This document shows, one piece after another, positions 38,760 through 54,289 of a stretch of 64,000 nt of DNA. The DNA lies in contig JAYRRP010000003.1 of assembly GCA_041910055.1 (NCBI GenBank), forward strand, positions 173,973 through 237,972. Direction: 5' to 3'. Origin of the DNA: Candidatus Saccharimonadales bacterium. Its GTDB lineage: Bacteria; Patescibacteriota; Saccharimonadia; Saccharimonadales; JAYRRP01. The notes under the pieces were generated by a model that saw nothing but the letters and a program-made list of their open reading frames with translations, made no database searches and was not told the DNA's origin. Position numbers and translations under genes: made by a program. How positions within the stretch are numbered: position 1 is the stretch's first letter; each line of letters begins with the position of its first letter.

Positions 38760-41700
38760 CGGTTACTTACTTGCATAGGATCCCAGTGCCAAGATTCAGC
38801 AGAGTATTGTTTATAGCCATATTTATCAGCATTATCATGTAGCCATTGCCATACATTGCTAGACGGGTCGCGGGCGCGTGAGCTACATGACCCTCCACCC
38901 TTTACGTTAGTACCAGCAAAATCAATTGCCAAACCCATCTGGTGATTTGAATTACCTGGATGGGCTACGTACGCAGGGTCGGGATGCTTATCCCATAACG
39001 CTTGTTGATGTGCCATTGTTCTAAAGGAACTATTTGCACTAAAGGTGATGCCGGCTGTCTTTGCATCATTAAACATAGACAAGATTGCGCCGGAAACACG
39101 TGAATTAACTAAAACTCGCCCATTTGCATTCTCCACGTACCAGCTACCGCCAGGTGTACTCTCATCACTACTGCTGTTAAAACCGGGTATGGCACAAAGC
39201 CGGATTTTCACTAATACACCATCATGGTATCCGTCATTGATACCTGCATCGTCAGTGCCAGTCGCACAAGCTACATCTACGGATGACTCATAAATATCGC
39301 CAACAATACCACCGGGGTTATTGCCTGTAGCCTGTCCTGAGCTAACGCCACCAGGATCCTGAAGATCTTCAGGGCGCAAAACGTCAGTGCTGAACAGTCC
39401 GCCGGCACTGCCGGTGGCAGCCCTCTCTAATAAGCACGGACTAACATCGTTATGCTCATCTAAGTGGGTGTCAGGATTTTCCGTGGCACTATCGGCCCAA
39501 GTCTGGATTTGCTCATCACAATATGCATCGGTGTACTTATCGCCATCTGCGTTAATTGCTGGATCACCTAGCGGATATCCATATTGTGGTACCCCAAATG
39601 GATCAGCGGTGGTAGCGGCTTTGGTTTTTGGAGTCATAAATAACGAACTGAAACCAGTTTGAATTTTGCCAATCGGGTTAGAGAATAATGATGCAACAGA
39701 GGATTGAGATAGTTTACTGAAATTCATAGGCATGCTCATGGCTAACTGGCTCACCATAGATTTAGAGTCTTCTTTGTCAAACATGCGTGCAAACAGGCTT
39801 TTATGCGAGAAAGTTTCTTGTTCTTCCTGCATACGGTCAGTGCGGATAGCGGCAACTTCGGCATCACTCAACTTTTTGCCGCCTAGTGCATAGTGGGCAT
39901 AATCATTACCAGACACATCAGCACCACCGGCTGCCATATTGAAGGTTCGGGCACCGCTCATACCGTCATACATTGGTGAGGGAATGAAATATTTTGTAAC
40001 CCTCTCCACCAAGCCCTGTACCATTTCTCCTAATTTAGCTTCAATGGTACTGTAGCCGGGTATCAAACCGGCGACGTAGCTTATCCCATCTCCTATTGCT
40101 CCAGTTATTCCATTTATTACCCAACCAATTGAGTTATTCCACCAGTCCGCGGCAGTGCCGAGTGTGGCGAGTGGTTCGTCTTTAAAGAATTCTGAAGCTC
40201 TCGTGACAAAGTTATTCGGAATCAACTTTTCCTCGGGGCAAACCAATTCACCGGCAGCTATTGGCTGACCATCGTCACAGGTGTACTTGGCCTGTGTGCC
40301 TTGAGCATATGCACTTGGCGACAAGAGGTTTAAGAAAGATGTTTTGACTGGAGCAGGTGTGGCCATAAGGTTGTCGTACAAAGGGCTGACTTCGGCTGAT
40401 TGGCCTTTATGCTGGTCATTGCCTGCGGCGTCACTGAGGGTATCAACACTGCCACCGAGCATCTCTACGTCGATGTCTGCATTCTTTAGCTCATCCGCGT
40501 GGCTTCGGTACAATTGATAGAGTGTGGCCATAGACGTTCCATTTATCAAAAACGTCCATCGTTTTACCTGAGGCCCCGCACCCTTTATTGTCTTGATAAA
40601 TTTTGCAGCTGTATCGATATACCCCACGACCGGGAGAACCTTTCCCGTTGCTTCTTTTACATATTCCTGGGTGGCTTCTTTGGTAAACACTTTCTCAATA
40701 GATTTATCGAGCAGGTATTTGCTTATGCCCCCCTTGGTATCGAGTATTTTTTCTACCTCATCTGTTAATTCTTTGGCAGAATACTTCAAAAAATCTCCAC
40801 CTTGGCTTTCGACATAAGAGGCAACTTTCTTTTCAAGCGCATCCCGGCGTTTCTCATGGTCTTTGCCCTCATCAGTATCGCTACCGTCATCGACGCATTT
40901 TCCTGAAATAATACAGCCCATTGCTTCCTGAACAAGATCGTTATGAGGCAAAATTACCCGTTTAACAATCATTATCCTGGCGGCTTGCTTCTTTTTGTCT
41001 TTCCAGTCGTCAAATTTGTCGGTTGTCTTGCAAAAGAACATACAACGCCTAACTCCGTACTTGCGTTCCATTAACCGCCCTACCTTAAAACGGTACATAA
41101 TTTGCCGGATCTTCGTTTCGTCCTTAAAGGCGTCTTTAACTGCAGATCGAATATTAGAGCGGCTTTTTATCGTCGCTACGTCATCCAGTGTCGCGGCTTT
41201 TCCATTTGCCAAGTCGCTGACATCGATCCCACTCTTCTCACCCTTCACAAACATTTTTATTCCACTTCCATCTGATTGAAACGTCAGGCCATAGTTGGTC
41301 GCTAGTTTGTTTTCTAATCTGTTTTCACTCCACGCTTTATACAAACGTTTAGAAGGTGTGTCGGTTATATCAATCTTAACGCAGTCTTTGTTGGTCAGAG
41401 TGGATTTACAGTTAGGTTTACCTTTCATAGAGGGAAACACGTGTTTGCGTAAATAATCGGCAAATAGCTTATCACCGCGTTTCTCAACGGCGGATTCCCC
41501 ACTGGAATAATAGTGCTTTTGTAGGTTTTCGGCGATATGGTTTACCTTCAATGGCAAGAAAGACAGAAAAGATCCAACTAAGATACCGCCAATTCCGGCA
41601 CCAATCCCACCACCAATGATAATTTTTTTTCGCCGCGACCCGGCTACCTTATGCTTCAGGCGACTTAAGCGTCCACCGTCATCGCTGTCGTTGTAGCCTT

Positions 41701-41968
41701 CCCCGATTTGTTTCTCGTGCTGACCAAGTGCTCCAGCCTCGGCAGCTTCGGCCTTACTTTTTGCACCAGCACCGCCACCTTCCTCGGCTGATTTTAATTG
41801 ATCCGGGCTTTTTGTGCCTTTGTCTGCTTTTTTGCTTGCCTTCCGCGAACGCTCAAAAGTATCATCATATACTGATTTTTTATCATCACCATTGAATAAC
41901 GGCTCCTTAATCTCTTCACCGTGTTCATTCAATTCTTCTGTTGGTGTTGGTTTGTCCTCTTCGGGCAA
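38741..41968 (-). CDS. 1075-aa membrane-anchored protein with a C-terminal M15B/VanY-type D,D- or L,D-carboxypeptidase domain
   Basis: The N-terminus is charged and low-complexity. One Gly-rich TM helix follows (IIIGGGIGAGIGGILVGSFLSFLPL), then a ~750-aa region of unknown fold. The C-terminus carries SNHQMGLAIDF (SxHxxGxAxD) and ESWHW (ExWH) motifs. Confidence 0.7.
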   Translation of the reverse strand: MPEEDKPTPTEELNEHGEEIKEPLFNGDDKKSVYDDTFERSRKASKKADKGTKSPDQLKSAEEGGGAGAKSKAEAAEAGALGQHEKQIGEGYNDSDDGGRLSRLKHKVAGSRRKKIIIGGGIGAGIGGILVGSFLSFLPLKVNHIAENLQKHYYSSGESAVEKRGDKLFADYLRKHVFPSMKGKPNCKSTLTNKDCVKIDITDTPSKRLYKAWSENRLENKLATNYGLTFQSDGSGIKMFVKGEKSGIDVSDLANGKAATLDDVATIKSRSNIRSAVKDAFKDETKIRQIMYRFKVGRLMERKYGVRRCMFFCKTTDKFDDWKDKKKQAARIMIVKRVILPHNDLVQEAMGCIISGKCVDDGSDTDEGKDHEKRRDALEKKVASYVESQGGDFLKYSAKELTDEVEKILDTKGGISKYLLDKSIEKVFTKEATQEYVKEATGKVLPVVGYIDTAAKFIKTIKGAGPQVKRWTFLINGTSMATLYQLYRSHADELKNADIDVEMLGGSVDTLSDAAGNDQHKGQSAEVSPLYDNLMATPAPVKTSFLNLLSPSAYAQGTQAKYTCDDGQPIAAGELVCPEEKLIPNNFVTRASEFFKDEPLATLGTAADWWNNSIGWVINGITGAIGDGISYVAGLIPGYSTIEAKLGEMVQGLVERVTKYFIPSPMYDGMSGARTFNMAAGGADVSGNDYAHYALGGKKLSDAEVAAIRTDRMQEEQETFSHKSLFARMFDKEDSKSMVSQLAMSMPMNFSKLSQSSVASLFSNPIGKIQTGFSSLFMTPKTKAATTADPFGVPQYGYPLGDPAINADGDKYTDAYCDEQIQTWADSATENPDTHLDEHNDVSPCLLERAATGSAGGLFSTDVLRPEDLQDPGGVSSGQATGNNPGGIVGDIYESSVDVACATGTDDAGINDGYHDGVLVKIRLCAIPGFNSSSDESTPGGSWYVENANGRVLVNSRVSGAILSMFNDAKTAGITFSANSSFRTMAHQQALWDKHPDPAYVAHPGNSNHQMGLAIDFAGTNVKGGGSCSSRARDPSSNVWQWLHDNADKYGYKQYSAESWHWDPMQVSNRCGPDT

Positions 41969-41993: not shown

Positions 41994-43907
41994 CTAGCTA
42001 CCTGGATAGAGCCGGTTATTGAGGTCTATAGTCCCCTCCGGCTTGTCTAAATCCCCTTGTTGTTCAAGCTGCTTAATTTGCTCTGGATTAGTCGTTATAA
42101 GTCCAGTCTCGGTCGGGCTGGCAGCCACTTGTATGTGCACGTGGCTTTGACCGGCAAAAAACAAGCCTTGGCCGATGGGGAACTGACTCAAGCGCTTTCT
42201 TTCCTCACTGGTAAGTTTAAACACGTCTGTTAACACATCAACTGAAGAAGTAGACTGCTTCAGCAATAACTGCATGCTAGCATTCGCTACAATTGCCCGG
42301 CCCATTCGCGAACCCATAAAGTCCTCGACGTCTTGGCTGATAGTTGTGATGCCAAGGTTATACTTACGGGCTCGCTTGGCTAGGCTGAACATAAAGTTGG
42401 CCGAGTCCTCATACTTCATTAGTTGCCAAGCTTCATCTATAACGAGTATGCGGCGCTTTTTATCTGATTTGGTTTTGTTCCAAATGAAGTTCAAGACGAT
42501 GTACATTGCCACTGGCCGTAGCTCGTCTTCCAAATCGCGGATATTAAATACCACCATGGGATTATTAATGTCGATATTTGATTGTTGGGAGAAAATACCT
42601 GCGAAAGTTCCGGAAGTGTACTTACGCAAGCGTTGGCCGAGTGACGGACCGCTGCCACCCATATGCAGAAGGGTGTCGTATAAGTCGGCAATAGTTGGCG
42701 GCACGGCGGTGTGAGTCAGCGGATCGTTGGTAATACCAGCCTTGGCGTAAGTTTCAATTAGGGCTGCATCCAGATCAGCTTCTTCAACGGGGCTTAGCGC
42801 TGGCATGGCCGCGACGCCACCTGATACCATCTGCGCCTGAGCGCCCCCCATCATTAACCTCAATAAGCCGTGTAGAGTAATTAGATTGCTGCGCAAGGCG
42901 TTATCCGCTTCTTCGGGGTCGACTACCGTGGGCAGTTCAAACGGATTAATACGAGTGGCCGAGTTGAGGCTCAACCGCACGTAGGCGCCCCCCACCGCGT
43001 CGCACATTCGTTGGTACTCGTTCTCTGGGTCGATAATGAATATTTCCGTGCCAAACATCATACTGCGCAAAGCCTCGAGCTTGACGGCGAACGACTTGCC
43101 TGCCCCTGATTTGGCAAACACTACTGAGTTACCGTTTTCCAACGTGAAACGGTCAAATATCACCAGCCCTGAGTTATGCATGTTAATGCCATAGAGGATG
43201 CCGTTATCCTGGCTGAGGTCAGCGCTGGTAAAAGGGAAGCTGGTGCTTATAGCACCGGTATTCATGTTGCGCCGGATTAGCAATTGGTCGATTAGTTGTG
43301 GCACGGTGCTGTTAAAGCCTTGCTCTTGCTGGGCCGACGCTACTTTGGAATACACTAATTGCTGGCCAAGCAGTGACTCGACTTTGTGGGTGACAAAGTC
43401 CAACTCTTCCAATGAGTTAGCGTAGAGAGTGAAGTAAAGCCCGAAACGGAAGAATCGCTCCTCGCCCACCTGCAATTTGTCACGCATCTCTTCGGCGTCC
43501 TGGATGGCAGCCTGTTTGCCCGGATCACGAACCCGTCCCTTTTCGCTGTCTATCTGGATACCTGCCTCGAGCTGGGAAACTTTTTTACGCAGATTTTCTA
43601 GGATTACCTGACTGTCTACCGGATACACATACATGGTCAGATCTATTACTTCATCCAGATTCACCATACTGCTGAGCCAGCCGGTCATGACCTGACGCGG
43701 ATAGCCATACACATACATGGTACGGGCAAAGCGAGTTCCTAAATGAAAGAAGCCATTTTCATATACCAGCGAACTTGGGGCGATAAAGTCGCGGAGTGCC
43801 GTGACTCCCTTTTGGAAAGCGGCCTGGACCTCTTGCTCCTCCTGAAGTCGTTGGGCTGCGGCAATTGCCGCCGGATCCGCAGGCTGATTCTTTTTACCGA
43901 ACGCCAT
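41994..43907 (-). CDS. virB4: VirB4/TrbE-family type IV secretion ATPase
   Basis: Walker A is VFAKSGAGKSF and Walker B is RILVIDEAWQL. The N-terminal domain pattern is RTMYVYGYPRQV...MYVYPVD, and the protein is 637 aa. Its start overlaps the upstream stop (TAATG). Confidence 0.9.
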   Translation of the reverse strand: MAFGKKNQPADPAAIAAAQRLQEEQEVQAAFQKGVTALRDFIAPSSLVYENGFFHLGTRFARTMYVYGYPRQVMTGWLSSMVNLDEVIDLTMYVYPVDSQVILENLRKKVSQLEAGIQIDSEKGRVRDPGKQAAIQDAEEMRDKLQVGEERFFRFGLYFTLYANSLEELDFVTHKVESLLGQQLVYSKVASAQQEQGFNSTVPQLIDQLLIRRNMNTGAISTSFPFTSADLSQDNGILYGINMHNSGLVIFDRFTLENGNSVVFAKSGAGKSFAVKLEALRSMMFGTEIFIIDPENEYQRMCDAVGGAYVRLSLNSATRINPFELPTVVDPEEADNALRSNLITLHGLLRLMMGGAQAQMVSGGVAAMPALSPVEEADLDAALIETYAKAGITNDPLTHTAVPPTIADLYDTLLHMGGSGPSLGQRLRKYTSGTFAGIFSQQSNIDINNPMVVFNIRDLEDELRPVAMYIVLNFIWNKTKSDKKRRILVIDEAWQLMKYEDSANFMFSLAKRARKYNLGITTISQDVEDFMGSRMGRAIVANASMQLLLKQSTSSVDVLTDVFKLTSEERKRLSQFPIGQGLFFAGQSHVHIQVAASPTETGLITTNPEQIKQLEQQGDLDKPEGTIDLNNRLYPGS

Positions 43908-44891: not shown

Positions 44892-45980
44892 CTAATGCAA
44901 CGAAACCACGATTTCATCCGTCGACTGCCTTTTGGTCTTGTGCTTTTGGTTTGCTTCTCGCTCCAGGCTAGCCACGGACCGGTCGTTGTTTCTCGCCAGC
45001 CTTATTTTATCAGGAACACTGCCCCCTGTCATTCCGTTAGTGCTTTTGGATTGGGGAGGTTTTGTACCTAGCGGGTCAATAACTTTCATATGGGCATAAC
45101 CGGTTAAAGTGTCCTGCTTGTCTTTCCGTACTTTTGCCAGCAAGGCTTGTTCGTCTGCGCTTGCTGGTTCGGCCGCGAAAGGGCTGGGCGGCGGAGGCTC
45201 AGACACGTGAGTAGTGAAGGTTACCAGATCCGCCGGTGGCAGAGGCGGTGTATTCATAAACCAATAATTCGGGGCGGGTGTTGGCTCGGTTTTTCCGGGT
45301 GGGGCCGTGGAGGCTTCCCGGGCCTGTTCTACCCGTTCTATGGCAGCGGCACGGTGTTGCTTGGCGGCTGCATTAATCATATTGTCGAGTTTTTGGGCGG
45401 TGGGGTTGGATTGTGCGTCCATGATATCGTCGGCTGCTCCCACATCAACCGCTGGTACTGCCGGTGCGACGGCTGCTGGGTCTAACAAACGGTCCGTTTG
45501 TTGTTGGTAAGCACTGCTGGCATAAGCTGGCTGTGTATACATATTCAGGGCCGCGTTTTTGATAGCCCAACCACGACTGTCCAGGGTCGTCGATAATGCC
45601 TGCAGCCGGCTGCGCACTTCAGTTTCGCTCAGTTCGTTGGAAGTATAGGGATTTTCTATTTTTGGGGCAGTTATAGTAACTAATTCTTCGATGCCGTCTT
45701 GATCCCACACCCGTTTGCGGGGTTTGAACATAAAACGCAGTTTGGCAGCCAGCCAAACCTCGGTGGGCTGATCACGTCCCCACGGAAAGGCCAAAAAACC
45801 AAAACTCACCACGAAAGGTACGAGGACTAACGCCACATACCACAGCTTTTTGGTAAACAAAAAGAACGCCACATACGCACAAATGGCGGTAATAGCGGCA
45901 AAGATAAATTGCTTAAGCGTGAGAGGGCCTAAGAATTTATCCTCGGCCTCGATATCCTGGATAACCTTATACGTCGACAT
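44892..45980 (-). CDS. PrgI/VirB3-like two-TM T4SS membrane protein with a long Ala/Pro-rich C-terminal extension
   Basis: The N-terminus EAEDKFLGPLTLKQFIFAAITAICAYVAFFLF...WYVALVLVPFVVSFGFLAFPWGRDQPTEVW matches the PrgI-family hairpin architecture. The gene lies immediately upstream of the VirB4 region. Confidence 0.55.
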   Translation of the reverse strand: MSTYKVIQDIEAEDKFLGPLTLKQFIFAAITAICAYVAFFLFTKKLWYVALVLVPFVVSFGFLAFPWGRDQPTEVWLAAKLRFMFKPRKRVWDQDGIEELVTITAPKIENPYTSNELSETEVRSRLQALSTTLDSRGWAIKNAALNMYTQPAYASSAYQQQTDRLLDPAAVAPAVPAVDVGAADDIMDAQSNPTAQKLDNMINAAAKQHRAAAIERVEQAREASTAPPGKTEPTPAPNYWFMNTPPLPPADLVTFTTHVSEPPPPSPFAAEPASADEQALLAKVRKDKQDTLTGYAHMKVIDPLGTKPPQSKSTNGMTGGSVPDKIRLARNNDRSVASLEREANQKHKTKRQSTDEIVVSLH

Positions 45981-46120
45981 AATCTTACACTAAAGTATAA
46001 GCGTTAATCAGATAAGAGCAAGCGGTCTCTTCGCTAGGCATTAAGTACTAAGGACTGGGTACTATGAAGTGTGGCCTAGAAATCTTGCCCATTTGGGGGT
46101 TTAAGCTCCTAAGTCTGTGC

Positions 46121-46972
46121 CTAAGTTCTTCGCGCGTGACGGGGAGTGTAACCCTTTGATGCCCTCTGGTGTTGGCGACTTCTTTTCTTTTGCTCATGTT
46201 GTTCAGAGAGTTCGGTAAGCCTATCCTGCAAATCTTGTTGACGCAGATTATGCTCATGTGCCTTGTGACGATGGCGCACCATTCTTTTACCCATGCGCAA
46301 TCCTGTTGTGTCTCTTCCACGTAGAGCCTTAAGATTCCGCTCCTCTTTTCTGTCTAAAACCCTTTGGTGTCGCATGTTACTGATGGCGCCCTGTCTCTCA
46401 CTTCTTCGCTCAGCTCTAGTGTATCGTCCTGTACGTATCCTATCCCAATGATCATCACTACCAACATCGTCCCCGTGTACATATCCGAGACGCCATTGCT
46501 TATATGATCTTTTTACAGCGCGCGCATTTCTTCGCGAAGTTTTGTATGCAATCCTTCTCTCTTGGTGGGTAGCAAGAACATAGGCAGGGTCTCTGGGATT
46601 GCTAGGCCTTTCTTTTACCTTTGCAAGCTGTACTTTTACTATATGTTTACGTTCTTTCCTTGTCTCAAATAATTCACGTGCGTCAGCGTCATGATCAGCG
46701 GCCGCTCTCTCATGATGCCTGATACGCAATTTTGTAACTAATTTTCGCAAGCCAGTAAGTGCGGGTGAGGAAGGCTCAATTGCTCTGTGTTGAGGAGTAT
46801 AATCTTCAGGAGTTGAGGGAGGAGCGACTGTTGCCGCTATTTCTTCCAGTCCTAACGCGGGATCAATTGCAGGAGTGGGTAGCCCGCTATTTTCCTCCTG
46901 ATATTTCTCAGGAACTGGAGGTGTATTCGGGGGAAGCGGAAATGATTCTGGAGTGTTTGTGTTTTCTGACAT
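46121..46972 (-). CDS. Highly basic (Arg/Lys/His-rich) soluble hypothetical protein with an acidic/Pro-rich N-terminus
   Basis: The protein is 283 aa with no hydrophobic segment. The C-terminal 200 aa are dominated by R/K/H/Q/E (for example RHRHKAHEHNLRQQ, KKRSRQHQRASKGYTPRHARRT). It sits between the VirB6-like and PrgI-like genes. Confidence 0.5.
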   Translation of the reverse strand: MSENTNTPESFPLPPNTPPVPEKYQEENSGLPTPAIDPALGLEEIAATVAPPSTPEDYTPQHRAIEPSSPALTGLRKLVTKLRIRHHERAAADHDADARELFETRKERKHIVKVQLAKVKERPSNPRDPAYVLATHQERRIAYKTSRRNARAVKRSYKQWRLGYVHGDDVGSDDHWDRIRTGRYTRAERRSERQGAISNMRHQRVLDRKEERNLKALRGRDTTGLRMGKRMVRHRHKAHEHNLRQQDLQDRLTELSEQHEQKKRSRQHQRASKGYTPRHARRT

Positions 46973-47036
46973 TATTATTAAACACTAGCATAATATATGT
47001 AAAACGTCAATTTTTATGTTTAGTATTGTTTTTGGT

Positions 47037-50000
47037 TTATTTTTTGCAGTGGCGGGCTAGGTTATTTTCTTTCCATTTCTCTAATGTGACCATCTGTATA
47101 CCTAGAATGTCGTAGTCCACTTCATAGAAACCGGTTTCATTAACATATACTGCGTGTGGGTGGGTAAGCAGGAGTTCTTGGGCAATCACTCCCACATATA
47201 TTTGGTCGCTCCACAGGTATTGGAAGCTATATAGATTAATGTTGTAAATATAATCAATACGTGTAATATTGCGCTTAAGTCGTCGATCAGATGGAGTGAT
47301 GGATGGCCCTGGTGGTCCTGCTGCAGGACCACCGCCAGCGGGTGGAGTTGGGGGGGCTCCACCACCCACGCTTCCACTAGTAGATTGTTGGGCACTAAGC
47401 TCACGTCGCATGTCCAGGTATGCTTGATTGTTTGGACCATATCGCCGACTTTCCATTACTTCTCGCAGTGTCGCTCCAGCAATACCAGGAGGTAGTGCTG
47501 TAGGTGGCAGAGACAGTAACTCATCTGCAAGTATGTCTGCCTTGTTGGGGGAAGTAGCCGCCATAGTATCGTAAAGATTTGCCACTCGAGCCAATTCTCT
47601 GTCGTAAGCGGCCCCTCCCTGGCTGGCTGCCTGAGTAAGTCTGTCCCGCATTTCGGGTATAAGTGCTCTAACTGCTGCAGGCTTCATACTTGCGTGTGCT
47701 ATAGTGCCTGCCGCCTGTGAGTTGACAACGTCTCTGGAAACATCAACTGTTGCAGCTCTTGCATCATAGGCAGGACCTGCGGGCGTTCTGCCTGTTTGCA
47801 GGTTTTCCATAGCGGTGGCCATAGTTGCAAAACCAGCTCCACCAAGGTCGACTCTACCAGATCCCATTGCCCCACCTCGCATTTCCGCGAGCATTCTGCC
47901 AGCTACGCTTCTATCTCCTCCAGATGCGGCATTAATGGCCTCAAGCATTTCACCTGAATCTGAGAAACCCGTACCAGTAGCTGCCTGCGCTCTCGTGGCA
48001 GCAACACGAGCAACAGAATCACTCGTTTCTCTTTTGGCTCTCATCACTTCACCAACAGCTTCATCTAATACTCGTGGGTCACTAAATCTTTGGGGCGCTC
48101 TTCTTTGCAGTACTGATCGTATACTTGCCTCGTCTGTGCCAGTCATCAGTGCCCAGAGCTTATCATCGTCACCCTTTATTGCTCCAAATGATGCGCTTTC
48201 TTCCATATATTTACTCGCTAAATCGAAATCTGCTGACCCTCTTGCAGTGGCCATATTCCTGCGCCACTTGCTTGGCCGGAGGCCAGCCTTAGGTACTAGT
48301 GTAGCACCCATTAGAAATGAACTAGCCCCTCTAGATACTGCATTGTTGCCCTTAAATCTGTTGCCAGCTTTCGTATCTTGCCAATTTTGGGCGGTTTGTT
48401 GCTTTCTGAAGCCCTTGAGGCGGTCGAAGGCGCCGCGCGAGCGGTCGTTTACGATGCCACCAATTTGCCCAACCGCACCGCCAGCCAGGCGGAAGGCAAA
48501 CGGCAAAGCAAAGTAAGGCCCAAAATATGCAGCAAACGCAATAAGTGAAGCCAGCGTATCGTGGAGCGTTGAATCACTCCCGGGTACAGTAGTAGAATAT
48601 GATGCTACTTTTGCAAAGGCATGTCCCGTTGCAATAAATGCTGAGATTATAGGAAAGGCGACCAAAGCTCGCCAAAAGAAATCCCACCACATTTTCCAAA
48701 CTCGTTCTGTATTGGGCAGTATGTAACAGGCTATGGCAATGGGAGCAACTATCACCAGCATCAGAATTAATAGTTGCCGAGCTGTTAGTACCAGAAATGC
48801 TATGAGTACCGCAAGTATGGCTGTTCCCATGAGGCTGAGTATTCCCAGGAAACCAAGTGATAATCCCGCTGCACCAACAGCAACGGTTCCTATCGTCAGT
48901 GCGCCATTATTAAATGTTACCCCATTACTAAAATTAGCATCAAATAACCTCTCAATTAATTCTCTAATACCTACTCCTGCCACATTTGAGAATTCAATCA
49001 TTATACGCAAGATTGGTAGTGAAATTGAGATAAATATCACCGCAAATACAAGACGAGGCATCACCTTTTTGATCGTATAAGCATCAAATGGTCCCCAGCT
49101 GACAGCTTGCGAAATAACCATTACAAGACCGGCAATTACCAGTAAGCCAAGCGAAAGGTTGCGCATACTTCCCCACGCATTCCCGAGACTGTTGTTACTA
49201 TTGTCGAAATAGTCCGAAGTAGGGAACGTCAACATATAGGTAATGAGATTATCTAGTTGTCTAACTGCGCTTTCCGCTAAGTGTAACAGCGGACACATGA
49301 ACCACTTAAGTGGATTCCAAGAGACAGCATCACAATCTATACCAGTTTTGCTATCACTGCTGCCGTTAGTGCTCCCTGTATCCTTGCCCGGCCCAAACTG
49401 TTCTGCCTTTTTAGCGACGCAAGCCTTTAGTGCTTCTTCGGTAAGGTCTTCGTTCGGATGCTCGTTAATACAATCATCCTCGTATTCCAACATATTTGCT
49501 GCATCTTGGGAATAAATATGCAACCGGAGTGCTTCGTTTACGATATTTCCACAAGAAACTTGTCCATCATCTCCTCCATCAAAGTCATAATCATGCCCGA
49601 CCGGAACTCTCTGTGCTGCTCCACCGTCATCATAGACAAATTTCCTACCATCTATCTCAAAACCGCCTGCGCTTGGATTCTTGTCTCCCTCTACTGCGCA
49701 CATATTAGTCAGGTTCCACCTTATACGCCTAATCATTTCTGAATACGTTAAAGGCATGCGCTCCGTAACGAAATCTTCAGCTTTGTTTCTTACTTCATCT
49801 ACTTTTTCATTTATAAGAATCCAGTCTGAGCCGCTTTTTGTATAAAGTTCTTCTGTTTTAAACCCTAAGTATGATTCTACGGAACCGAGTTGATCGCATC
49901 GAACTATGCCATTTGAATAGCCTAAATCGTTCCCAATAGGTACTTCGCGGTGTGTGCCAAGTACGAACCCAGAATCATTCCATGCGGTTGCAAAAGTCGG

Positions 50001-50234
50001 AGCGTCAGTAAGTGATGGGGTTGTAGCTACTCTATTTCTTATGCCTATGTCTAAACAGTTTATGAACGCTCTTACTTCACGTCGTTTCTTCTGCTCTTCT
50101 TCAGAAATGCGTTGAGCGGCATCAGCCTCTACTTTTCCGGTATTTATTATCAAAAAAGAAAAAGTGTGTATACCTACAGAAACGGCGAACAATAACAGGA
50201 TACCTAATAAGGAAGTTTTAGTTTTTGCTTTCAT
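47037..50234 (-). CDS. VirB6/TrbL-like polytopic T4SS protein with large N-terminal ectodomain, Ala/Gly-rich C-terminal region and terminal peptidase-S74 intramolecular-chaperone (tail-fibre autoprocessing) domain
   Basis: There is an N-terminal signal/anchor. A TM cluster covers about nt 48435-49187 and includes a TrbL/VirB6-like segment (LTARQLLILMLVIVAPIAIACYILPNTERVWKMWWDFFWRALVAFP). The C-terminal 84 aa, SDRRLKRNITRI...VGVIAQELLLTHPHAV...EVDYDILG, match the S74 signature (SDxRLKxNI ... G.IAQE ... VDY). Confidence 0.7.
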   Translation of the reverse strand: MKAKTKTSLLGILLLFAVSVGIHTFSFLIINTGKVEADAAQRISEEEQKKRREVRAFINCLDIGIRNRVATTPSLTDAPTFATAWNDSGFVLGTHREVPIGNDLGYSNGIVRCDQLGSVESYLGFKTEELYTKSGSDWILINEKVDEVRNKAEDFVTERMPLTYSEMIRRIRWNLTNMCAVEGDKNPSAGGFEIDGRKFVYDDGGAAQRVPVGHDYDFDGGDDGQVSCGNIVNEALRLHIYSQDAANMLEYEDDCINEHPNEDLTEEALKACVAKKAEQFGPGKDTGSTNGSSDSKTGIDCDAVSWNPLKWFMCPLLHLAESAVRQLDNLITYMLTFPTSDYFDNSNNSLGNAWGSMRNLSLGLLVIAGLVMVISQAVSWGPFDAYTIKKVMPRLVFAVIFISISLPILRIMIEFSNVAGVGIRELIERLFDANFSNGVTFNNGALTIGTVAVGAAGLSLGFLGILSLMGTAILAVLIAFLVLTARQLLILMLVIVAPIAIACYILPNTERVWKMWWDFFWRALVAFPIISAFIATGHAFAKVASYSTTVPGSDSTLHDTLASLIAFAAYFGPYFALPFAFRLAGGAVGQIGGIVNDRSRGAFDRLKGFRKQQTAQNWQDTKAGNRFKGNNAVSRGASSFLMGATLVPKAGLRPSKWRRNMATARGSADFDLASKYMEESASFGAIKGDDDKLWALMTGTDEASIRSVLQRRAPQRFSDPRVLDEAVGEVMRAKRETSDSVARVAATRAQAATGTGFSDSGEMLEAINAASGGDRSVAGRMLAEMRGGAMGSGRVDLGGAGFATMATAMENLQTGRTPAGPAYDARAATVDVSRDVVNSQAAGTIAHASMKPAAVRALIPEMRDRLTQAASQGGAAYDRELARVANLYDTMAATSPNKADILADELLSLPPTALPPGIAGATLREVMESRRYGPNNQAYLDMRRELSAQQSTSGSVGGGAPPTPPAGGGPAAGPPGPSITPSDRRLKRNITRIDYIYNINLYSFQYLWSDQIYVGVIAQELLLTHPHAVYVNETGFYEVDYDILGIQMVTLEKWKENNLARHCKK

Positions 50235-50317: not shown

Positions 50318-50346
50318 TTGCCGTAATCGCCAAATAACGCTATAGT
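50318..50346 (+). promoter_or_regulatory. Putative sigma70-type promoter of the pilin array (TTGCCG-17 nt-TATAGT)
   Basis: TTGCCG lies at 50318-50323 and TATAGT at 50341-50346, with a 17-nt spacer. It sits 32 nt upstream of the first pilin ATG, in the divergent intergenic region. Confidence 0.35.
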
Positions 50347-50377: not shown

Positions 50378-50860
50378 ATGAAACAAAAAATAACACTGAA
50401 CATTCGTTTGCTAGGAGTAATTCTTGTCAGTGCATTTGTAGCTACAATGTTACTCATTCCTGGTAGCGCACAGGCCCACTCTAACTATTTAGTTCCACCA
50501 CGAATTGTTGCCCAAGCCTCTACCCCTGATCAGCAAGCGCAGCAGGATCCAGAGAAAACACCCGTAAAAGAATTGCCAAGATCTGAGGGTTCAAGGGAGT
50601 GTAATAAAGACGTCGCAGGAGAGTGTGTTTCCAAAATGTTTGACTACATCAATTATGCTATTGCTGCCATAGCGGCACTTACGGGGGTAGTGATAATAAT
50701 TGCAATCATTGCAGCTGGGATCGAGTATGCTTCTGCCGGGGGGGACCCGCAAAAGGTAGCCAGCGCCAAAAATCGCATCCGAAACGCAATTATCGGATTA
50801 ATTGCCTTTGGGCTATTGTTTGGATTCTTAAGTTGGCTCGTGCCTGGAGGGATAGGCTAA
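50378..50860 (+). CDS. VirB2/TrbC-like T4SS pilin paralog 1
   Basis: It has a signal peptide (LLGVILVSAFVATMLLIPGSAQA), a Cys pair (CNKDVAGEC), then two hydrophobic helices flanking the loop GIEYASAGGDPQKVASAKNRI. Confidence 0.7.
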   Translation: MKQKITLNIRLLGVILVSAFVATMLLIPGSAQAHSNYLVPPRIVAQASTPDQQAQQDPEKTPVKELPRSEGSRECNKDVAGECVSKMFDYINYAIAAIAALTGVVIIIAIIAAGIEYASAGGDPQKVASAKNRIRNAIIGLIAFGLLFGFLSWLVPGGIG

Positions 50861-50861
50861 G

Positions 50862-51236
50862 ATGCTCCAATATCTTCATTTATTTGCGGCAGCATGTAAT
50901 AGCAAAAATTTCTTAGGTATTTTACCCACTTGGTATAAATATCTGCCAACCTCACCAGGTAACGGGCTAGAATGTAATGTGAACTTTGACCCTAGGCAAG
51001 CTGACCAGTGGGGTTTCATAGCCTTAGCATTTGTGGATATTTTGGTACGCGTAGCCGGAATAGTCGCCTTGGGTTTTATCATATATGGCGGTATACGATA
51101 TATCACTAGCCAGGGAGAACCGGATGCGACCCGTGAGGCGCAGCATACAGTTACAAATGCAGTGATTGGCCTTGTCATTGCCATAATCGGCGCTACCGTT
51201 ATAGCGTTCATTGGCAAAACCTTGGGAGGGTCATAA
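50862..51236 (+). CDS. VirB2/TrbC-like T4SS pilin paralog 2
   Basis: Two hydrophobic helices flank GGIRYITSQGEPDATREAQHTV. The gene starts 2 nt after paralog 1. Confidence 0.65.
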   Translation: MLQYLHLFAAACNSKNFLGILPTWYKYLPTSPGNGLECNVNFDPRQADQWGFIALAFVDILVRVAGIVALGFIIYGGIRYITSQGEPDATREAQHTVTNAVIGLVIAIIGATVIAFIGKTLGGS

Positions 51237-51239
51237 ATC

Positions 51240-51521
51240 ATGCTACCTGCCATGTTTACAATTATTTCCCAGATATCTACCGCACCATTGCCGAAAGTTG
51301 ACGACAGTACGACGGTTACGGTGTTACTTCAACTAACTTTTGGTATTGCGGGTGCGCTAACAGTGTTGTTTCTTGTGTGGGGCGGCTTTAAGTATGTGAC
51401 CAGCCAGGGCGAGCCAGATCGGATTGCCAAAGCCAAAGATACAATATTATATTCGGTTATTGGGCTGGTAGTTACCATTGCATCATATGGAATAGTAGCG
51501 TACGTGACGAGGTGGCTATGA
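51240..51521 (+). CDS. VirB2/TrbC-like T4SS pilin paralog 3 (shortest, 93 aa)
   Basis: Two hydrophobic helices flank GGFKYVTSQGEPDRIAKAKDTI. Confidence 0.65.
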   Translation: MLPAMFTIISQISTAPLPKVDDSTTVTVLLQLTFGIAGALTVLFLVWGGFKYVTSQGEPDRIAKAKDTILYSVIGLVVTIASYGIVAYVTRWL

Positions 51522-51898
51522 GACATAGAGCAATAGTTGCATCAGTAATTGTACTTTTGAGCATGAGCGTGGTGACATTTGCGCTGGTGCCGACAGCAAG
51601 AGCTTTTTCACCAGTCAAAACTGCTTGCCCAGCGGAATCAGCGGGCTGCCCAGCAAATCCATCCAACCCTTTTTATGGCCCTAATGGGCTTATTACCAAG
51701 CTTACCACTGTAGTAGCAATTTTTACTGGAGTGGCGGCGGTGTTTGTGCTGGTAATTGCCGGTATATCATTTATGACCTCTGGCGGTGAACCGAATAAAA
51801 TTGCCACGGCACGACGCATGGTGCTCTACGCAATAGTCGGTATTGTCGTCGCAGTACTAGCGCAAGGTATCGCAAGTTTTGTATTATCTAAGCTATGA
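51512..51898 (+). CDS. VirB2/TrbC-like T4SS pilin paralog 4
   Basis: It has a signal peptide, a Cys pair (CPAESAGC), and helices flanking GISFMTSGGEPNKIATARRMV. It overlaps paralog 3 by 10 nt. Confidence 0.65.
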   Translation: MAMRHRAIVASVIVLLSMSVVTFALVPTARAFSPVKTACPAESAGCPANPSNPFYGPNGLITKLTTVVAIFTGVAAVFVLVIAGISFMTSGGEPNKIATARRMVLYAIVGIVVAVLAQGIASFVLSKL

Positions 51899-52299
51899 GC
51901 AACAAAATAAAACAATTTAACAGATTTTTGGTAGCTGGCTTATTGGTAAGCGTGTTCTTCAGTAGCTTTGCATTAGCTACCCCCCAACATTCTTATGCAC
52001 AAGACGCAAAAAATGCCGCCTGTGAGGGGGCGCAGCTAACAAATTGCAATGTGCAAAATGGCGGTCTGACTGTAGACAAGGTGCTGAGGTTTGCCTTGAA
52101 CACCCTCAGCATTGCTGCCGGCATCGTCGCGGTAGTGATGATTATTGTCGGTGGATTTAAGTATATGACTTCGCAAGGAGACGCCAACCAAACGGCAGCG
52201 GCCAAGAACACCATATTATATGCTGTGGTTGGCGTTATAATTGCGGTACTGGCGCAGGTGATTGTGCATTTCGTGCTCAGCCGAGTCAATAAAACGTGA
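51895..52299 (+). CDS. VirB2/TrbC-like T4SS pilin paralog 5
   Basis: It has a signal peptide, a Cys pair (CEGAQLTNC), and helices flanking GGFKYMTSQGDANQTAAAKNTI. It has a 4-nt overlap with paralog 4. Confidence 0.65.
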   Translation: MSNKIKQFNRFLVAGLLVSVFFSSFALATPQHSYAQDAKNAACEGAQLTNCNVQNGGLTVDKVLRFALNTLSIAAGIVAVVMIIVGGFKYMTSQGDANQTAAAKNTILYAVVGVIIAVLAQVIVHFVLSRVNKT

Positions 52300-52368
52300 C
52301 CCCTTCTTGAATAAATATAAGCATATATGGTATAACCAAAAGCAAGATAAGAAAGGCCAAAAATAATT

Positions 52369-52779
52369 ATGATCAAGAAAATCAAGACACTATTGCTTAC
52401 CGCCAGTTTAGTGGGAAGTGTGCTCGTACCGGCTGTGGTGCCTATAGCGGCGCACGCTCAAGAGCTGATTAGCCCCACCCGATGCGGTACTGATTTAACA
52501 GCTAACAACGTAAACTGTGAAGCCAATGATCCTACTTCTGAAGAGCGAGTCAACAACATTATTAAATTGGCGATTAATACTTTCTCTATCCTTGTCGGTA
52601 TCGTTTCGGTGGTCATGATAATTGTCGGCGGCCTGAAGTACATCACCTCTGGTGGTGAATCAGCCAACGTCACCAGTGCCAAGAATACGATTCTTTACGC
52701 GGTCATTGGTCTGGTTATTGTGGCGCTAGCCCAGATAATCGTGCGCTTTGTTCTATCTCGAACTGCCAGCGCCGGCTAG
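52369..52779 (+). CDS. VirB2/TrbC-like T4SS pilin paralog 6
   Basis: It has a signal peptide, a Cys pair (CGTDLTANNVNC), and helices flanking GGLKYITSGGESANVTSAKNTI. Confidence 0.65.
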   Translation: MIKKIKTLLLTASLVGSVLVPAVVPIAAHAQELISPTRCGTDLTANNVNCEANDPTSEERVNNIIKLAINTFSILVGIVSVVMIIVGGLKYITSGGESANVTSAKNTILYAVIGLVIVALAQIIVRFVLSRTASAG

Positions 52780-52879: not shown

Positions 52880-53365
52880 TTACAGGACTTGGATTTTCTT
52901 GACTGTGTCTTGCTTGAGTTTCTTAAACGATACAGTTAGCACGCCATCTTTAAGGACGGCTTCAATCTCATCTTCTTTTACAGGTACCGGTAGGGCAATG
53001 CTGCGTGAAAACTCACCCCAATAGCATTCCTGAATAAAGTAGTTCTCTACATCATCTTCATTCCCGGCCGAAAGTGTGCCGCGGATACTTAGAGTGTTGT
53101 CAGCAATACTTACGTCAAGCTCGTTCTTATTCACTCCGGCGGTGCGAGCCTTGACTACCAGTTTTTCTTTCGTTTCGTATACATCTAGTGCCAACTGGCC
53201 AGGAACTGCTTCTTCCTCATCCCACTGCTCTTCGGCAGGTGTAGATGGTGTTTCGGCTTGTGGTGTCTCTTCTTGTGCGGCAGCTGGTGTGTCTTCTTCA
53301 CCCAAAAACGCAGCGGTCAGTTCATCTTCCATCAACAAATCTTCATCGCGATTTCGTCGCGCCAT
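52880..53365 (-). CDS. Hsp20/alpha-crystallin family small heat-shock protein
   Basis: The alpha-crystallin domain is LALDVYETKEKLVVKARTAGVNKNELDVSIADNTLSIRG...GEFSRSIALP...LKDGVLTVSF, preceded by an acidic N-terminal extension. Confidence 0.85.
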   Translation of the reverse strand: MARRNRDEDLLMEDELTAAFLGEEDTPAAAQEETPQAETPSTPAEEQWDEEEAVPGQLALDVYETKEKLVVKARTAGVNKNELDVSIADNTLSIRGTLSAGNEDDVENYFIQECYWGEFSRSIALPVPVKEDEIEAVLKDGVLTVSFKKLKQDTVKKIQVL

Positions 53366-53484
53366 AGTTGTTACCCTCCGCTTTAGTCATTAAACTTGCG
53401 TTTTTGTGTTATCAGCAGTATAGCTTAGGTTATAATAGCCAGCAACCGGTGGGGGTACATATTTACAACGGTAGTAATTACAAC

Positions 53485-54159
53485 ATGCTAGTGTTTGAAC
53501 CCTTTCTGAAATTGTTTGCCCCGTATTCCTGCTTGATTTGCGGACAGGAAGGAGTATTAGTATGCAAAGAGTGTCGGCCCGACTTGAGCCTCCCCTTGCC
53601 TTCGCGCTGCTACTGCTGTCAGGCGGCGAGCCAGGAGTTTGCCGTTTGTGAGCGATGTCGCCCTCAGAGCAAACTCCGTCACGTCTGGATTTACACAGAG
53701 TACACTGGGCAGGCAAAAGAGTTGGTGCGAGTGCTGAAATACCACTTTGCCCGTGATGCGGCCAAAATTATGGCTGAATGTATGGTTGAAACGCTACCGC
53801 ACTTCAAGCCAGAGGATGTACTGCTTGTTCCCGTTCCCACTGCTACCAGCCGTCGGCGGGCACGTGGCTTTGACCAGGCGCAGCTTCTTGCCAAACATAT
53901 TGCCCGTGCCACAGGCTGGCAATATATGGATGCACTAGGCCGCCGCGGGCAATCACGACAAGTAGGCAATAAACGAGACCAGCGGCTGAGGCAACTACAT
54001 TCTTCATTCTATCGACGCGCATCTATGCCAGCTGGGAAACATATTATCTTAGTGGATGATGTGGTGACGACAGGAGCGACAATTGAAACCGCGGCGCGAG
54101 TAATGAGGAGTGCCGGAGCGGCGACAGTTGATGCCGTACTGTTTGCCCAGGCTAATTGA
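53485..54159 (+). CDS. comF: ComF-family protein (ComFC-like phosphoribosyltransferase-fold competence protein)
   Basis: The start was moved to the ATG at 53485 (MLVFEPFLKLFAPYSCLICG). It has an N-terminal four-Cys zinc-finger pattern (CLIC...CKEC) and a PRT motif (IILVDDVVTTGATI). Confidence 0.75.
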   Translation: MLVFEPFLKLFAPYSCLICGQEGVLVCKECRPDLSLPLPSRCYCCQAASQEFAVCERCRPQSKLRHVWIYTEYTGQAKELVRVLKYHFARDAAKIMAECMVETLPHFKPEDVLLVPVPTATSRRRARGFDQAQLLAKHIARATGWQYMDALGRRGQSRQVGNKRDQRLRQLHSSFYRRASMPAGKHIILVDDVVTTGATIETAARVMRSAGAATVDAVLFAQAN

Positions 54160-54199: not shown

Positions 54200-54289
54200 G
54201 GAGAGGTGTCCGAGTGGTTGAAGGAACTGGTCTTGAAAACCAGCGGGCCGGCAACGGTCTCGTGGGTTCGAATCCCACCCTCTCCGCCA
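54200..54289 (+). tRNA. tRNA-Ser (anticodon UGA), CCA encoded
   Basis: Hand-folded. The acceptor pairs GGAGAGG/CCTCTCC. The anticodon stem CTGGT/ACCAG carries the loop CTTGAAA. A long variable arm and a T arm GTGGG-TTCGAAT-CCCAC are present, followed by discriminator G and CCA. Confidence 0.9.

Follow-up and report, generated by a model that had tools for sequence, protein, structure and literature searches.

A fixed-order array of six VirB2-like pilin genes beside a type IV secretion gene cluster in a Saccharimonadales bacterium

The window examined here is a 64,000-nucleotide (nt) stretch of contig JAYRRP010000003.1 (GCA_041910055.1; forward strand, positions 173,973-237,972) from the metagenome-assembled genome (MAG) of an uncultured environmental Saccharimonadales bacterium. 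Beside a gene cluster that encodes a type IV secretion system (T4SS), it carries six consecutive plus-strand open reading frames (ORFs) at 50378-52779, which an original prediction made from the DNA letters had read as tandem, divergent VirB2/TrbC-like pilin paralogues. The coordinates and lengths of the six ORFs (160, 124, 93, 128, 134 and 136 amino acids (aa)) proved to be as predicted. The proteins are called W1 to W6 below and the types to which they belong P1 to P6; each gene is listed with its score against the Pfam family PF18895 (T4SS_pilin).

50378-50860, plus strand: W1, type P1, pilin-like protein of 160 aa; PF18895 36.5 bits
50862-51236, plus strand: W2, type P2, 124 aa; PF18895 31.1 bits
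51240-51521, plus strand: W3, type P3, 93 aa, the shortest type; PF18895 50.7 bits
51518-51898, plus strand: W4, type P4, 126 aa from ATG 51518 (128 aa from GTG 51512); PF18895 34.1 bits
51895-52299, plus strand: W5, type P5, 134 aa; PF18895 46.9 bits, TrbC 26.2 bits
52369-52779, plus strand: W6, type P6, 136 aa, candidate major subunit; PF18895 48.6 bits

Most junctions are tight or overlapping, in agreement with the prediction: 1 nt separates W1 from W2 and 3 nt separate W2 from W3, W3 overlaps W4, and W4 and W5 overlap by 4 nt. A gap of 69 nt lies between W5 and W6. W2 and W3 are in one frame, with TAA plus one codon between them, and the sequence of W2 has an exact match in NCBI (P0121). 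The start of W4 is most likely ATG 51518 rather than GTG 51512, because this ATG forms an ATGA overlap with the stop of W3, has GAGG upstream, and was independently called as the start of a 126-aa protein in L003, an identical contig.

To clarify the family membership of these proteins, we ran profile searches. All six scored above the curated cut-off of PF18895 (31.1-50.7 bits versus 26.6), and precomputed PF18895 matches were also found on identical proteins, so that the assignment to a VirB2-like family holds. That six neighbouring ORFs should all pass the curated cut-off of a single Pfam family by chance can be excluded. A large protein collection contained 4,113 homologues of W6; nearly all of them, among the matches listed, carry PF18895, several are named 'pilin' by NCBI, and many P6 homologues have a precomputed match to the TrbC/VirB2 family PF04956. 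In our own search against PF04956 (cut-off 27.9 bits), W5 scored 26.2 bits (E 9.4e-6), W6 24.5, W3 18.9 and W4 15.9, with significant E values but below the cut-off in every case, and no match to this profile was obtained for W1 or W2. These scores indicate homology to the PF04956 pilins without strict membership. The NCBIfam model NF045849, which describes the Mbov_0395 pilin-like family of integrative and conjugative elements (ICEs) of Mycoplasma, where only a single copy of the gene is known, matched W1-W6 at 23.8-39.3 bits (E 1e-9 to 3e-5), below its cut-off of 40. The window proteins share with that family a two-helix module and a monoderm system of the mating-pair-formation class FATA (MPF-FATA), although they fall short of its cut-off. 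From this similarity, the VirB2-like hairpin protein may be an older component of monoderm MPF-FATA systems rather than an acquisition of Patescibacteria only.

Alignment of the six proteins (alignment A1) confirmed that they share a C-terminal module, with G103, G114, G122, A130 and G140 invariant. The glycine-rich motif that had been written for this module fits four of the six proteins as it stood; W1 and W4 have alanine in place of the first glycine, and W1 has Ser-Ala in place of Thr-Ser, while a slightly loosened version fits all six. Pairwise identity among W1-W6 is 21-49% at the aa level (28-49% in the comparison that also gave the nt values) and 42-55% at the nt level over aligned codons, and DNA repeats among the genes extend over only 20-32 nt, so that the copies are old, as had been proposed. 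Recent duplication or gene conversion among W1-W6 was rejected because these repeats are only motif-level. In an AlphaFold2 model of W6 built on a 56-sequence alignment (A2), a signal helix is followed by a low-confidence exposed loop that holds the Cys pair and then by a confident helical hairpin, whose helices span residues 55-93 and 98-135 with a predicted local distance difference test score (pLDDT) of about 90-95 (mean over the model, 79.5). The top match of this model in a Foldseek search of the PDB was the Aeropyrum pernix conjugation pilus 8dfu, at an E value of 0.92 that is not significant (probability 0.85; TM-score 0.64 on the target). We take this match as compatible with the assignment to the pilins, but not as proof of it. 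A match to cytochrome bd subunit II in profile searches of PDB sequences was discarded as spurious; weak spurious matches to this and other helical membrane families reflect a module that is compositionally generic.

For the comparison across genomes, a hidden Markov model was built from the six window proteins and run against ORFs in six frames from every locus fetched. In 40 loci, representing 37 distinct genomes including the window, the array has exactly six genes, with order and orientation unchanged. Loci with fewer matches were mostly cut at the locus edge or contained fusions, and one (L073) has two matches elsewhere in the locus; four loci (L023, L050, L055 and L070) have 7-9 pilin genes, and every additional copy is P5/P6-like and sits distally in the array. 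In more than 50 species loci, VirB6 and VirB4 are again the neighbours of the array. When each protein was assigned its nearest neighbour between genomes, that neighbour occupied the same array position in 37 of 37 genomes for P1, P2 and P6, in 36 for P3, in 29 for P4 and in 22 for P5. The six genes are therefore position-specific orthologue groups, P1-P6, in a fixed order across species. Mean identity across genomes is 38-63% for the pilin modules, highest for that of P6 (63%), and 19-33% for the exposed N-terminal regions, compared with 85.5% for VirB4 of the same genomes. Within a genome the modules of P5 and P6 are 61% identical, whereas the P5 module is 48% identical between species; since the within-genome value is the higher one, the sequences point to concerted evolution of P5 and P6 or to their turnover by repeated duplication and loss.

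Selection between strains was estimated against L001, which is about 93% identical to the window at the nt level. The ratio of nonsynonymous to synonymous substitution rates (dN/dS) is 0.03-0.17 for the six pilin genes, all of which are under purifying selection with no sign of decay. Constraint is strongest on W6 (99.3% aa identity, dN/dS 0.03) and weakest on W5 (83.6% aa identity, dS 0.69, dN/dS 0.17), in a pair of strains whose VirB4 is identical. The view of the array as old and maintained is upheld, since all six types recur in an unchanged order in 37 genomes, among which VirB4 is about 85% identical, and all six genes are under purifying selection between strains; the decay of some copies in relatives, which would have spoken against it, was not found.

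The types differ in their N-terminal parts. Signal-like N-termini, called heuristically as a hydrophobic segment followed by an AxA-type site, were found in W1, W4, W5 and W6 and in neither W2 nor W3. W3 is free of Cys and the other five proteins have exactly two each, all of them N-terminal to the first helix. The four Cys pairs that had been quoted in the original prediction are correct, but the pair of W2, C12/C38, had been missed. W1 has a signal-like segment (…GSAQA/HS, the slash marking the site), a Pro/Gln-rich exposed region with the Cys pair C75/C83, the two-helix module and a conserved WLVPGG tail. Its P1 orthologues, which likewise have a signal-like N-terminus, range from 131 to 301 aa, with a long and highly variable exposed region (mean identity 19%, versus 45% for the module) and a conserved …W(I/L)VPGG tail; of the 35 that were scored, 33 have an even count of exposed-region Cys (2-10). 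W2, in which no signal-like segment was called, carries the conserved motif AAxC…FLGxPTWYKYL…C (C12, C38); the signal is often absent from P2 orthologues too, in which AAxC…FLGFPTWYKYL…C is conserved. We considered reading the short P2 N-terminus (…FAAxC) as that of a lipoprotein, and dropped this because P2 orthologues of the long form have an ordinary AxA site several residues before the Cys. P3 is short and usually Cys-free, and a signal-like segment was called in none of its 37 orthologues; W3 itself lacks both signal and Cys. W4 has the segment …PTARA/FS and the pair CPAESAGC, and P4 orthologues combine a signal-like N-terminus with C-x(6-12)-C and an NPIYGPNG-like motif. W5 (signal-like N-terminus, CEGAQLTNC) is the closest paralogue of W6, at 49% aa identity. 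W6 begins with MIKKIK, continues with the signal-like segment …AAHA/QE and CGTDLTANNVNC, and has the most conserved two-helix module of the six. Orthologues of P5 and P6 have signal-like N-termini, and 35-36 of 37 contain C-x(5-21)-C. So strict a pairing of Cys in a region predicted to lie outside the cell suggests disulphide-bonded loops in the exposed part.

Natural fusions link neighbouring types. P2 and P3 are joined into a single ORF with two modules in L007 (3702-4358), L025 (1870-2523) and L059 (520-1200), and a fourth P2-P3 fusion (P0124) was independently called as a 215-aa protein in an ENA assembly; a P1-P2 fusion was seen once (L071, 2384-3319). When relatedness was judged by nearest-neighbour VirB4 identity, the closest relatives of L007, L025 and L059 had separate genes, so that their P2-P3 fusions look independent. 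Gene fusions are classic evidence that partners act together in one assembly. For two subunits to be joined, the C-terminus of the first must be on that side of the membrane where the N-terminus of the second lies, which fits P2 and P3, both leaderless here.

Two candidate promoters were placed in the array, one upstream of W1 and one in the gap before W6.

50318-50346, plus strand: TTGCCG-17-TATAGT, candidate promoter of sigma-70 type for W1-W5; it lies in the divergent gap of 143 nt that separates the VirB6-like gene from W1
52307-52356, plus strand: candidate internal promoter and ribosome-binding site (RBS) for W6; -35 TTGAAT at 52307-52312, TG at 52328-52329, -10 TATAAC at 52331-52336, Shine-Dalgarno AAGAAAGG at 52349-52356

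The promoter upstream of W1 had already been proposed, and the comparison lends it weight: the motif is at 50318-50346, and TTGnnn-16-18-TA.A.T occurs at the equivalent position before P1 in about 20 of the 37 genomes, mostly with TATAGT or TATAAT and usually with a 17-nt spacer. A scan of the single sequence gave 8 promoter-like matches against 6.2 +/- 1.9 by chance, which is not above chance, and it missed the P6 promoter, whose -10 element ends in C. The P5-P6 gap of 34 of 37 genomes contains TTGnnn…TnnTATAA, a -35 element with an extended -10, and the cross-species alignment shows AAGAAAGG to be conserved as well. The median length of this gap is 74 nt, versus -4 to +6 nt at the other junctions, in the 37 genomes. 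From this conservation we infer that the gap elements are a promoter and an RBS that would give P6 a separate and strong expression. On the other side of the gap, the W1-W5 junctions measure -4 to +3 nt, the 3' ends of the upstream genes hold GGAGG for W2, GGGAGG for W3 and GAGG for W4, and the starts of W4 and W5 form ATGA overlaps with the stop codons before them. The arrangement points to two transcription units, in one of which P1-P5 would be translationally coupled and in the other P6 separately promoted and strongly translated. No convincing terminator was found after W6 (fold z-score -1.0; no terminator-like matches in the scan).

The window also carries rnpA, yidC, jag, dnaA, dnaN and recF, and next to these lies the minus-strand T4SS cluster, from which the pilin array diverges. 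Its genes are as follows.

47037-50234, minus strand: extended VirB6/TrbL-like polytopic membrane protein, 1065 aa; TrbL_3 precomputed on the identical protein of L003; divergent from the array
46121-46972, minus strand: 283-aa protein, VirB8-like candidate by position only, the position being that of SEML1_0012 (NTF2-like, VirB8-like candidate in S. epibionticum)
44892-45980, minus strand: PrgI-family (VirB3-like) protein, 362 aa; PF12666 53.8 bits
43907-44851, minus strand: TraC/TrsD-like protein, 314 aa, resembling the N-terminal part of VirB4; precomputed PF26593, weak NCBIfam matches to TrsD and VirB4
41994-43907, minus strand: VirB4-type ATPase, 637 aa; P-loop_TraG 96.9 bits, AAA_10, CagE_TrbE_VirB 20.6 bits (cut-off 21)
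36843-41968, minus strand: two cell-wall hydrolase genes, one of 1075 aa with a C-terminal VanY domain and one of 638 aa with Amidase_2 and M23 domains

VirB6/TrbL_3, PrgI and VirB4 all lie within 9 kb of the array. The two hydrolases probably do the job of VirB1; their genes overlap by 19 nt, and dS of the Amidase_2/M23 gene between strains is 0.81, far above that of its neighbours. A 462-aa protein without assigned function belongs to the cluster as well, and the 283-aa protein at 46121-46972 had no Pfam or NCBIfam match. The VirB4 sequence recurs identically on several metagenome contigs; its identity to the VirB4 proteins from 80 species-level Saccharibacteria/Saccharimonadales MAGs is 80-88%. 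Downstream of the array lie an HSP20 gene (52880-53365, minus strand), a ComF-type phosphoribosyltransferase gene with a double zinc ribbon (53368-54159, plus strand) and tRNA-Ser at 54200. A Pfam search of every large ORF of the 64-kb window revealed no relaxase, coupling protein (T4CP) or integrase domain. An origin of the cluster as a mobile element (ICE or plasmid) was rejected on the grounds that relaxase, T4CP and integrase are lacking, gene order is conserved, GC content is like that of the flanks, and the cluster stands beside dnaA-dnaN-recF.

Several further observations concern the surroundings of the array. The C-terminus of the VirB6-like protein (47037-47360) is a Peptidase_S74 intramolecular-chaperone, self-cleaving domain (30.9 bits, …SDRRLKRNI…) that follows a Gly/Pro-rich linker; domains of this kind are typical of phage tail spikes and fibres. 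Among the fetched loci, the VirB6 of only three other species (L009, L052 and L059) has such a tail, and in the close strain L001/L002 VirB6 is a 968/954-aa protein without it. The region 46025-50075, which comprises the 283-aa gene and most of the VirB6-like gene, is mostly unalignable by blastn between the window and L001/L002, with only 48385-49349 aligning, while its flanks are 90-93% identical and the VirB4 protein is identical, so that this is a strain-level hypervariable patch in the T4SS cluster. In L001, two genes that are absent from the window, including one for a YafQ-type toxin, are inserted at 795-1347 between Hsp20 and the last pilin gene. At the other end of the window, 1-29400 holds a large surface-glycan locus with dTDP-rhamnose synthesis, several GT2/GT4 glycosyltransferases, DegT aminotransferases, ATP-grasp enzymes, an ABC-2 exporter pair, a Wzy-like ligase and a DUF7657/DUF7654 protein. 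From 4 to 26 kb the GC content (0.38-0.43) is lower than elsewhere in the window (0.44-0.51).

The feature is thus real and was correctly interpreted, but it has already been published, and the window adds no new kind of element. The supplementary tables of Wang et al. 2023, Cell (PMC10633639) list SEML1_0014-0019 of Southlakia epibionticum ML1 as six plus-strand PF18895 genes for proteins of 132, 185, 103, 126, 127 and 138 aa, each scored GD/ES/ES in transposon sequencing (Tn-seq). The ML1 array has the organization of the one in the window: six tandem PF18895 genes diverge from a TrbL/VirB6 gene of about 1000 aa, the third gene is short, the sixth is preceded by a gap (about 84 nt in ML1, 69 nt in the window), convergent Hsp20, comFC and tRNA-Ser follow (SEML1_0013-0022), and the T4SS to which the array belongs has PrgI and VirB4 and lacks a relaxase. 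It differs in that ML1 is an oral isolate and the window comes from an environmental MAG, in a slightly different arrangement of hydrolase and T4SS genes around VirB4, and in the missing signal peptide of P2 in the window. Essentiality of the array genes is known only for ML1, and the purifying selection on the six genes of the window is consistent with it. According to McLean et al. 2018 (bioRxiv 10.1101/258137), an array of 4-6 small VirB2-related proteins with signal peptides occurs across Saccharibacteria, and in Quinonero-Coronel et al. 2025 (PMC12102498), 441 VirB2 arrays of 2-11 genes with a mean identity of about 25% are reported from 383 Patescibacteria assemblies, near dnaA and without relaxases, with adaptation to different host strains as the suggested role. 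The published arrays resemble the present one in consisting of small, divergent VirB2-like genes near virB4 and often near dnaA (mean identity 25%, compared with 21-49% here), whereas both surveys describe variability and suggest versatility of host range. Position-specific orthologue groups, P5/P6 concerted evolution, the P6 promoter and fusions of neighbouring types do not appear in the portions of the published accounts at hand, and they are refinements of a known system.

Other known systems are more distant. Gram-negative VirB2/TrbC/TraA pilins (PF04956) are likewise small proteins with a leader and two hydrophobic helices around a short polar loop, encoded beside VirB3, VirB4 and VirB6, but there is usually one such gene per system, whereas the window has six types, two of them leaderless; moreover, the host here is a monoderm and, unlike the Gram-negative systems, is without VirB5, VirB7, VirB9 and VirB10. 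Tandem virB2/trwL genes of Bartonella Trw and Anaplasma, as cited in PMC12102498, similarly place multiple VirB2-type genes in a T4SS for host interaction. Those arrays are read there as variant copies for antigenic or host-range variation, whereas the window has six anciently separate types in fixed order. W1-W6 are not recent duplicates of the Bartonella Trw kind, and only the P5/P6 end behaves as amplifiable.

Two uses had been left for such an array by the original prediction, a heteropolymeric filament or a repertoire of alternative tips or adhesins, and our data favour the former and disfavour the latter. We consider it probable, though well short of assured, that the proteins form a heteromeric VirB2-type structure assembled by VirB4 and VirB6, with P6 as its major subunit, P1-P5 as fixed and non-redundant minor ones and P1 as the likeliest to contact the host. 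The heteromer is preferred on account of the fixed set of copies, the position-specific orthologues, the natural fusions and the essentiality of each S. epibionticum orthologue. A repertoire would instead consist of six interchangeable variants, one or a few of them used at a time, by which the surface of a homopolymeric pilus varies for different host strains or for escape from host or phage, by analogy with what has been proposed for the VirB2 paralogues of Bartonella Trw and Anaplasma. The rapid evolution of the exposed N-terminal regions (19-33% identity), the mere 83.6% identity of W5 between strains with identical VirB4, the concerted evolution of P5 and P6, the arrays of 7-9 copies and the adaptation to host strains suggested in the 2025 survey (PMC12102498) would all suit such a use. 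Number, order and type are, however, fixed in 37 genomes, with P1-P4 and P6 forming clean position-specific groups, all six genes are under purifying selection, and all six orthologues were scored essential in S. epibionticum. In addition, P2 and P3 lack signal peptides and are structurally unlike P5 and P6, fusions of neighbouring types imply simultaneous use, and the tight translational coupling of W1-W5 sits badly with expression one at a time. Taken together, a repertoire seems to us an improbable account of the array.

A more serious, although still rather unlikely, alternative is that these proteins form no extracellular polymer, and are either membrane-resident parts of the T4SS translocon or stalk or Sec-secreted effectors. 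Monoderm MPF-FATA systems without pili are described in PMC12102498 and PMC10633639, the TM7x papers labelled the array 'putative effectors', and no VirB2-type filament has been recovered from M. amalyticus; the related pilin-like protein of Mycoplasma ICEs (NF045849) belongs to a wall-less host and need not form a long pilus. Against this stand the homology to VirB2/TrbC pilins and, as far as soluble effectors are concerned, the two long hydrophobic helices that each protein is predicted to have (38-39 residues in the W6 model). A separately promoted and presumably abundant P6 suggests a polymer, and a tube-like structure at the site of host contact has been reported for the Saccharibacterium M. 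amalyticus. That the six are chance ORFs, or small membrane proteins of an ordinary kind with no relation to the T4SS, could be argued from the generic composition of the module, but with six of six above the PF18895 cut-off and the array beside VirB6/VirB4 in more than 50 species loci this is effectively refuted and hardly deserves any credence.

Several points weigh against a heteromeric pilus. In no organism has a filament of PF18895 proteins been seen, the filaments that were isolated from M. amalyticus consist of unrelated Ig-like Pam pilins, and Gram-positive-type T4SSs normally have no pilus (PMC12102498, PMC10633639). The PF04956 scores stay below the cut-off, no pilin came up when PDB sequences were searched with profiles of A1 and of the 56-sequence A2, and the match of the W6 model to solved conjugative pilins is not significant (E 0.92), the hairpin being too simple a fold to discriminate. 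The signal-peptide calls are heuristic, and the two promoters are predicted from conservation rather than from transcription starts that were mapped. The strain divergence of W5 and the turnover of P5/P6 fit a role in variation for at least that pair. The ML1 Tn-seq had only 11-15 insertion sites per gene (PMC10633639), and the essentiality of P1-P4 could be partly polar. If the P6 promoter is also present in S. epibionticum, the essentiality of SEML1_0018 (P5) is not a polar effect on P6.

If the heteromeric structure is the right reading, W1-W6 would insert into the membrane as helical hairpins, P1, P4, P5 and P6 via cleavable signal peptides and P2 and P3 without one. The variable N-terminal region would face outward, where its Cys pairs probably form a disulphide. 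The VirB4/VirB6 machine would then pull the hairpins out of the membrane and build them into a single heteromeric tube or pilus, which would reach through the wall toward the host bacterium. P6 would be the major subunit, because it has a conserved promoter to itself and a strong RBS, varies least among the six types and is the one that becomes duplicated. P1-P5 would be co-transcribed and translationally coupled specialised subunits of lower copy number, among which P2 and P3 may be neighbours in the assembly and P1, long, Cys-rich and fast-evolving, is the best candidate for the distal subunit that contacts the host. Type IV pili and type II pseudopili offer a functional analogy, in that one abundant subunit is combined with several conserved, non-redundant subunits of low copy number, although fold and machine are unrelated. 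A stricter version of this model, in which the six are obligate, non-interchangeable subunits of a single heteromeric tube or pilus, with P6 as separately promoted major subunit, P1-P5 as minor subunits in fixed proportion, P2 and P3 as direct neighbours and P1 as a host-specific distal adhesin, is one that we put forward tentatively, as possible and yet somewhat more doubtful than not.

Few systems have been shown to be essential to Saccharibacteria for their life as epibionts; the T4SS with its pilin array is one of them, and the literature still describes its function as completely unknown. The comparative results supply a specific, testable model, with six fixed types, a separately promoted P6, coupled minor subunits, and P2-P3 and P1-P2 fusions. 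If it is true that the six form a single obligate heteromeric tube, a monoderm would be the builder of the first heteropolymeric pilus of a T4SS, and this would be the physical conduit by which Saccharibacteria exploit their host bacteria.

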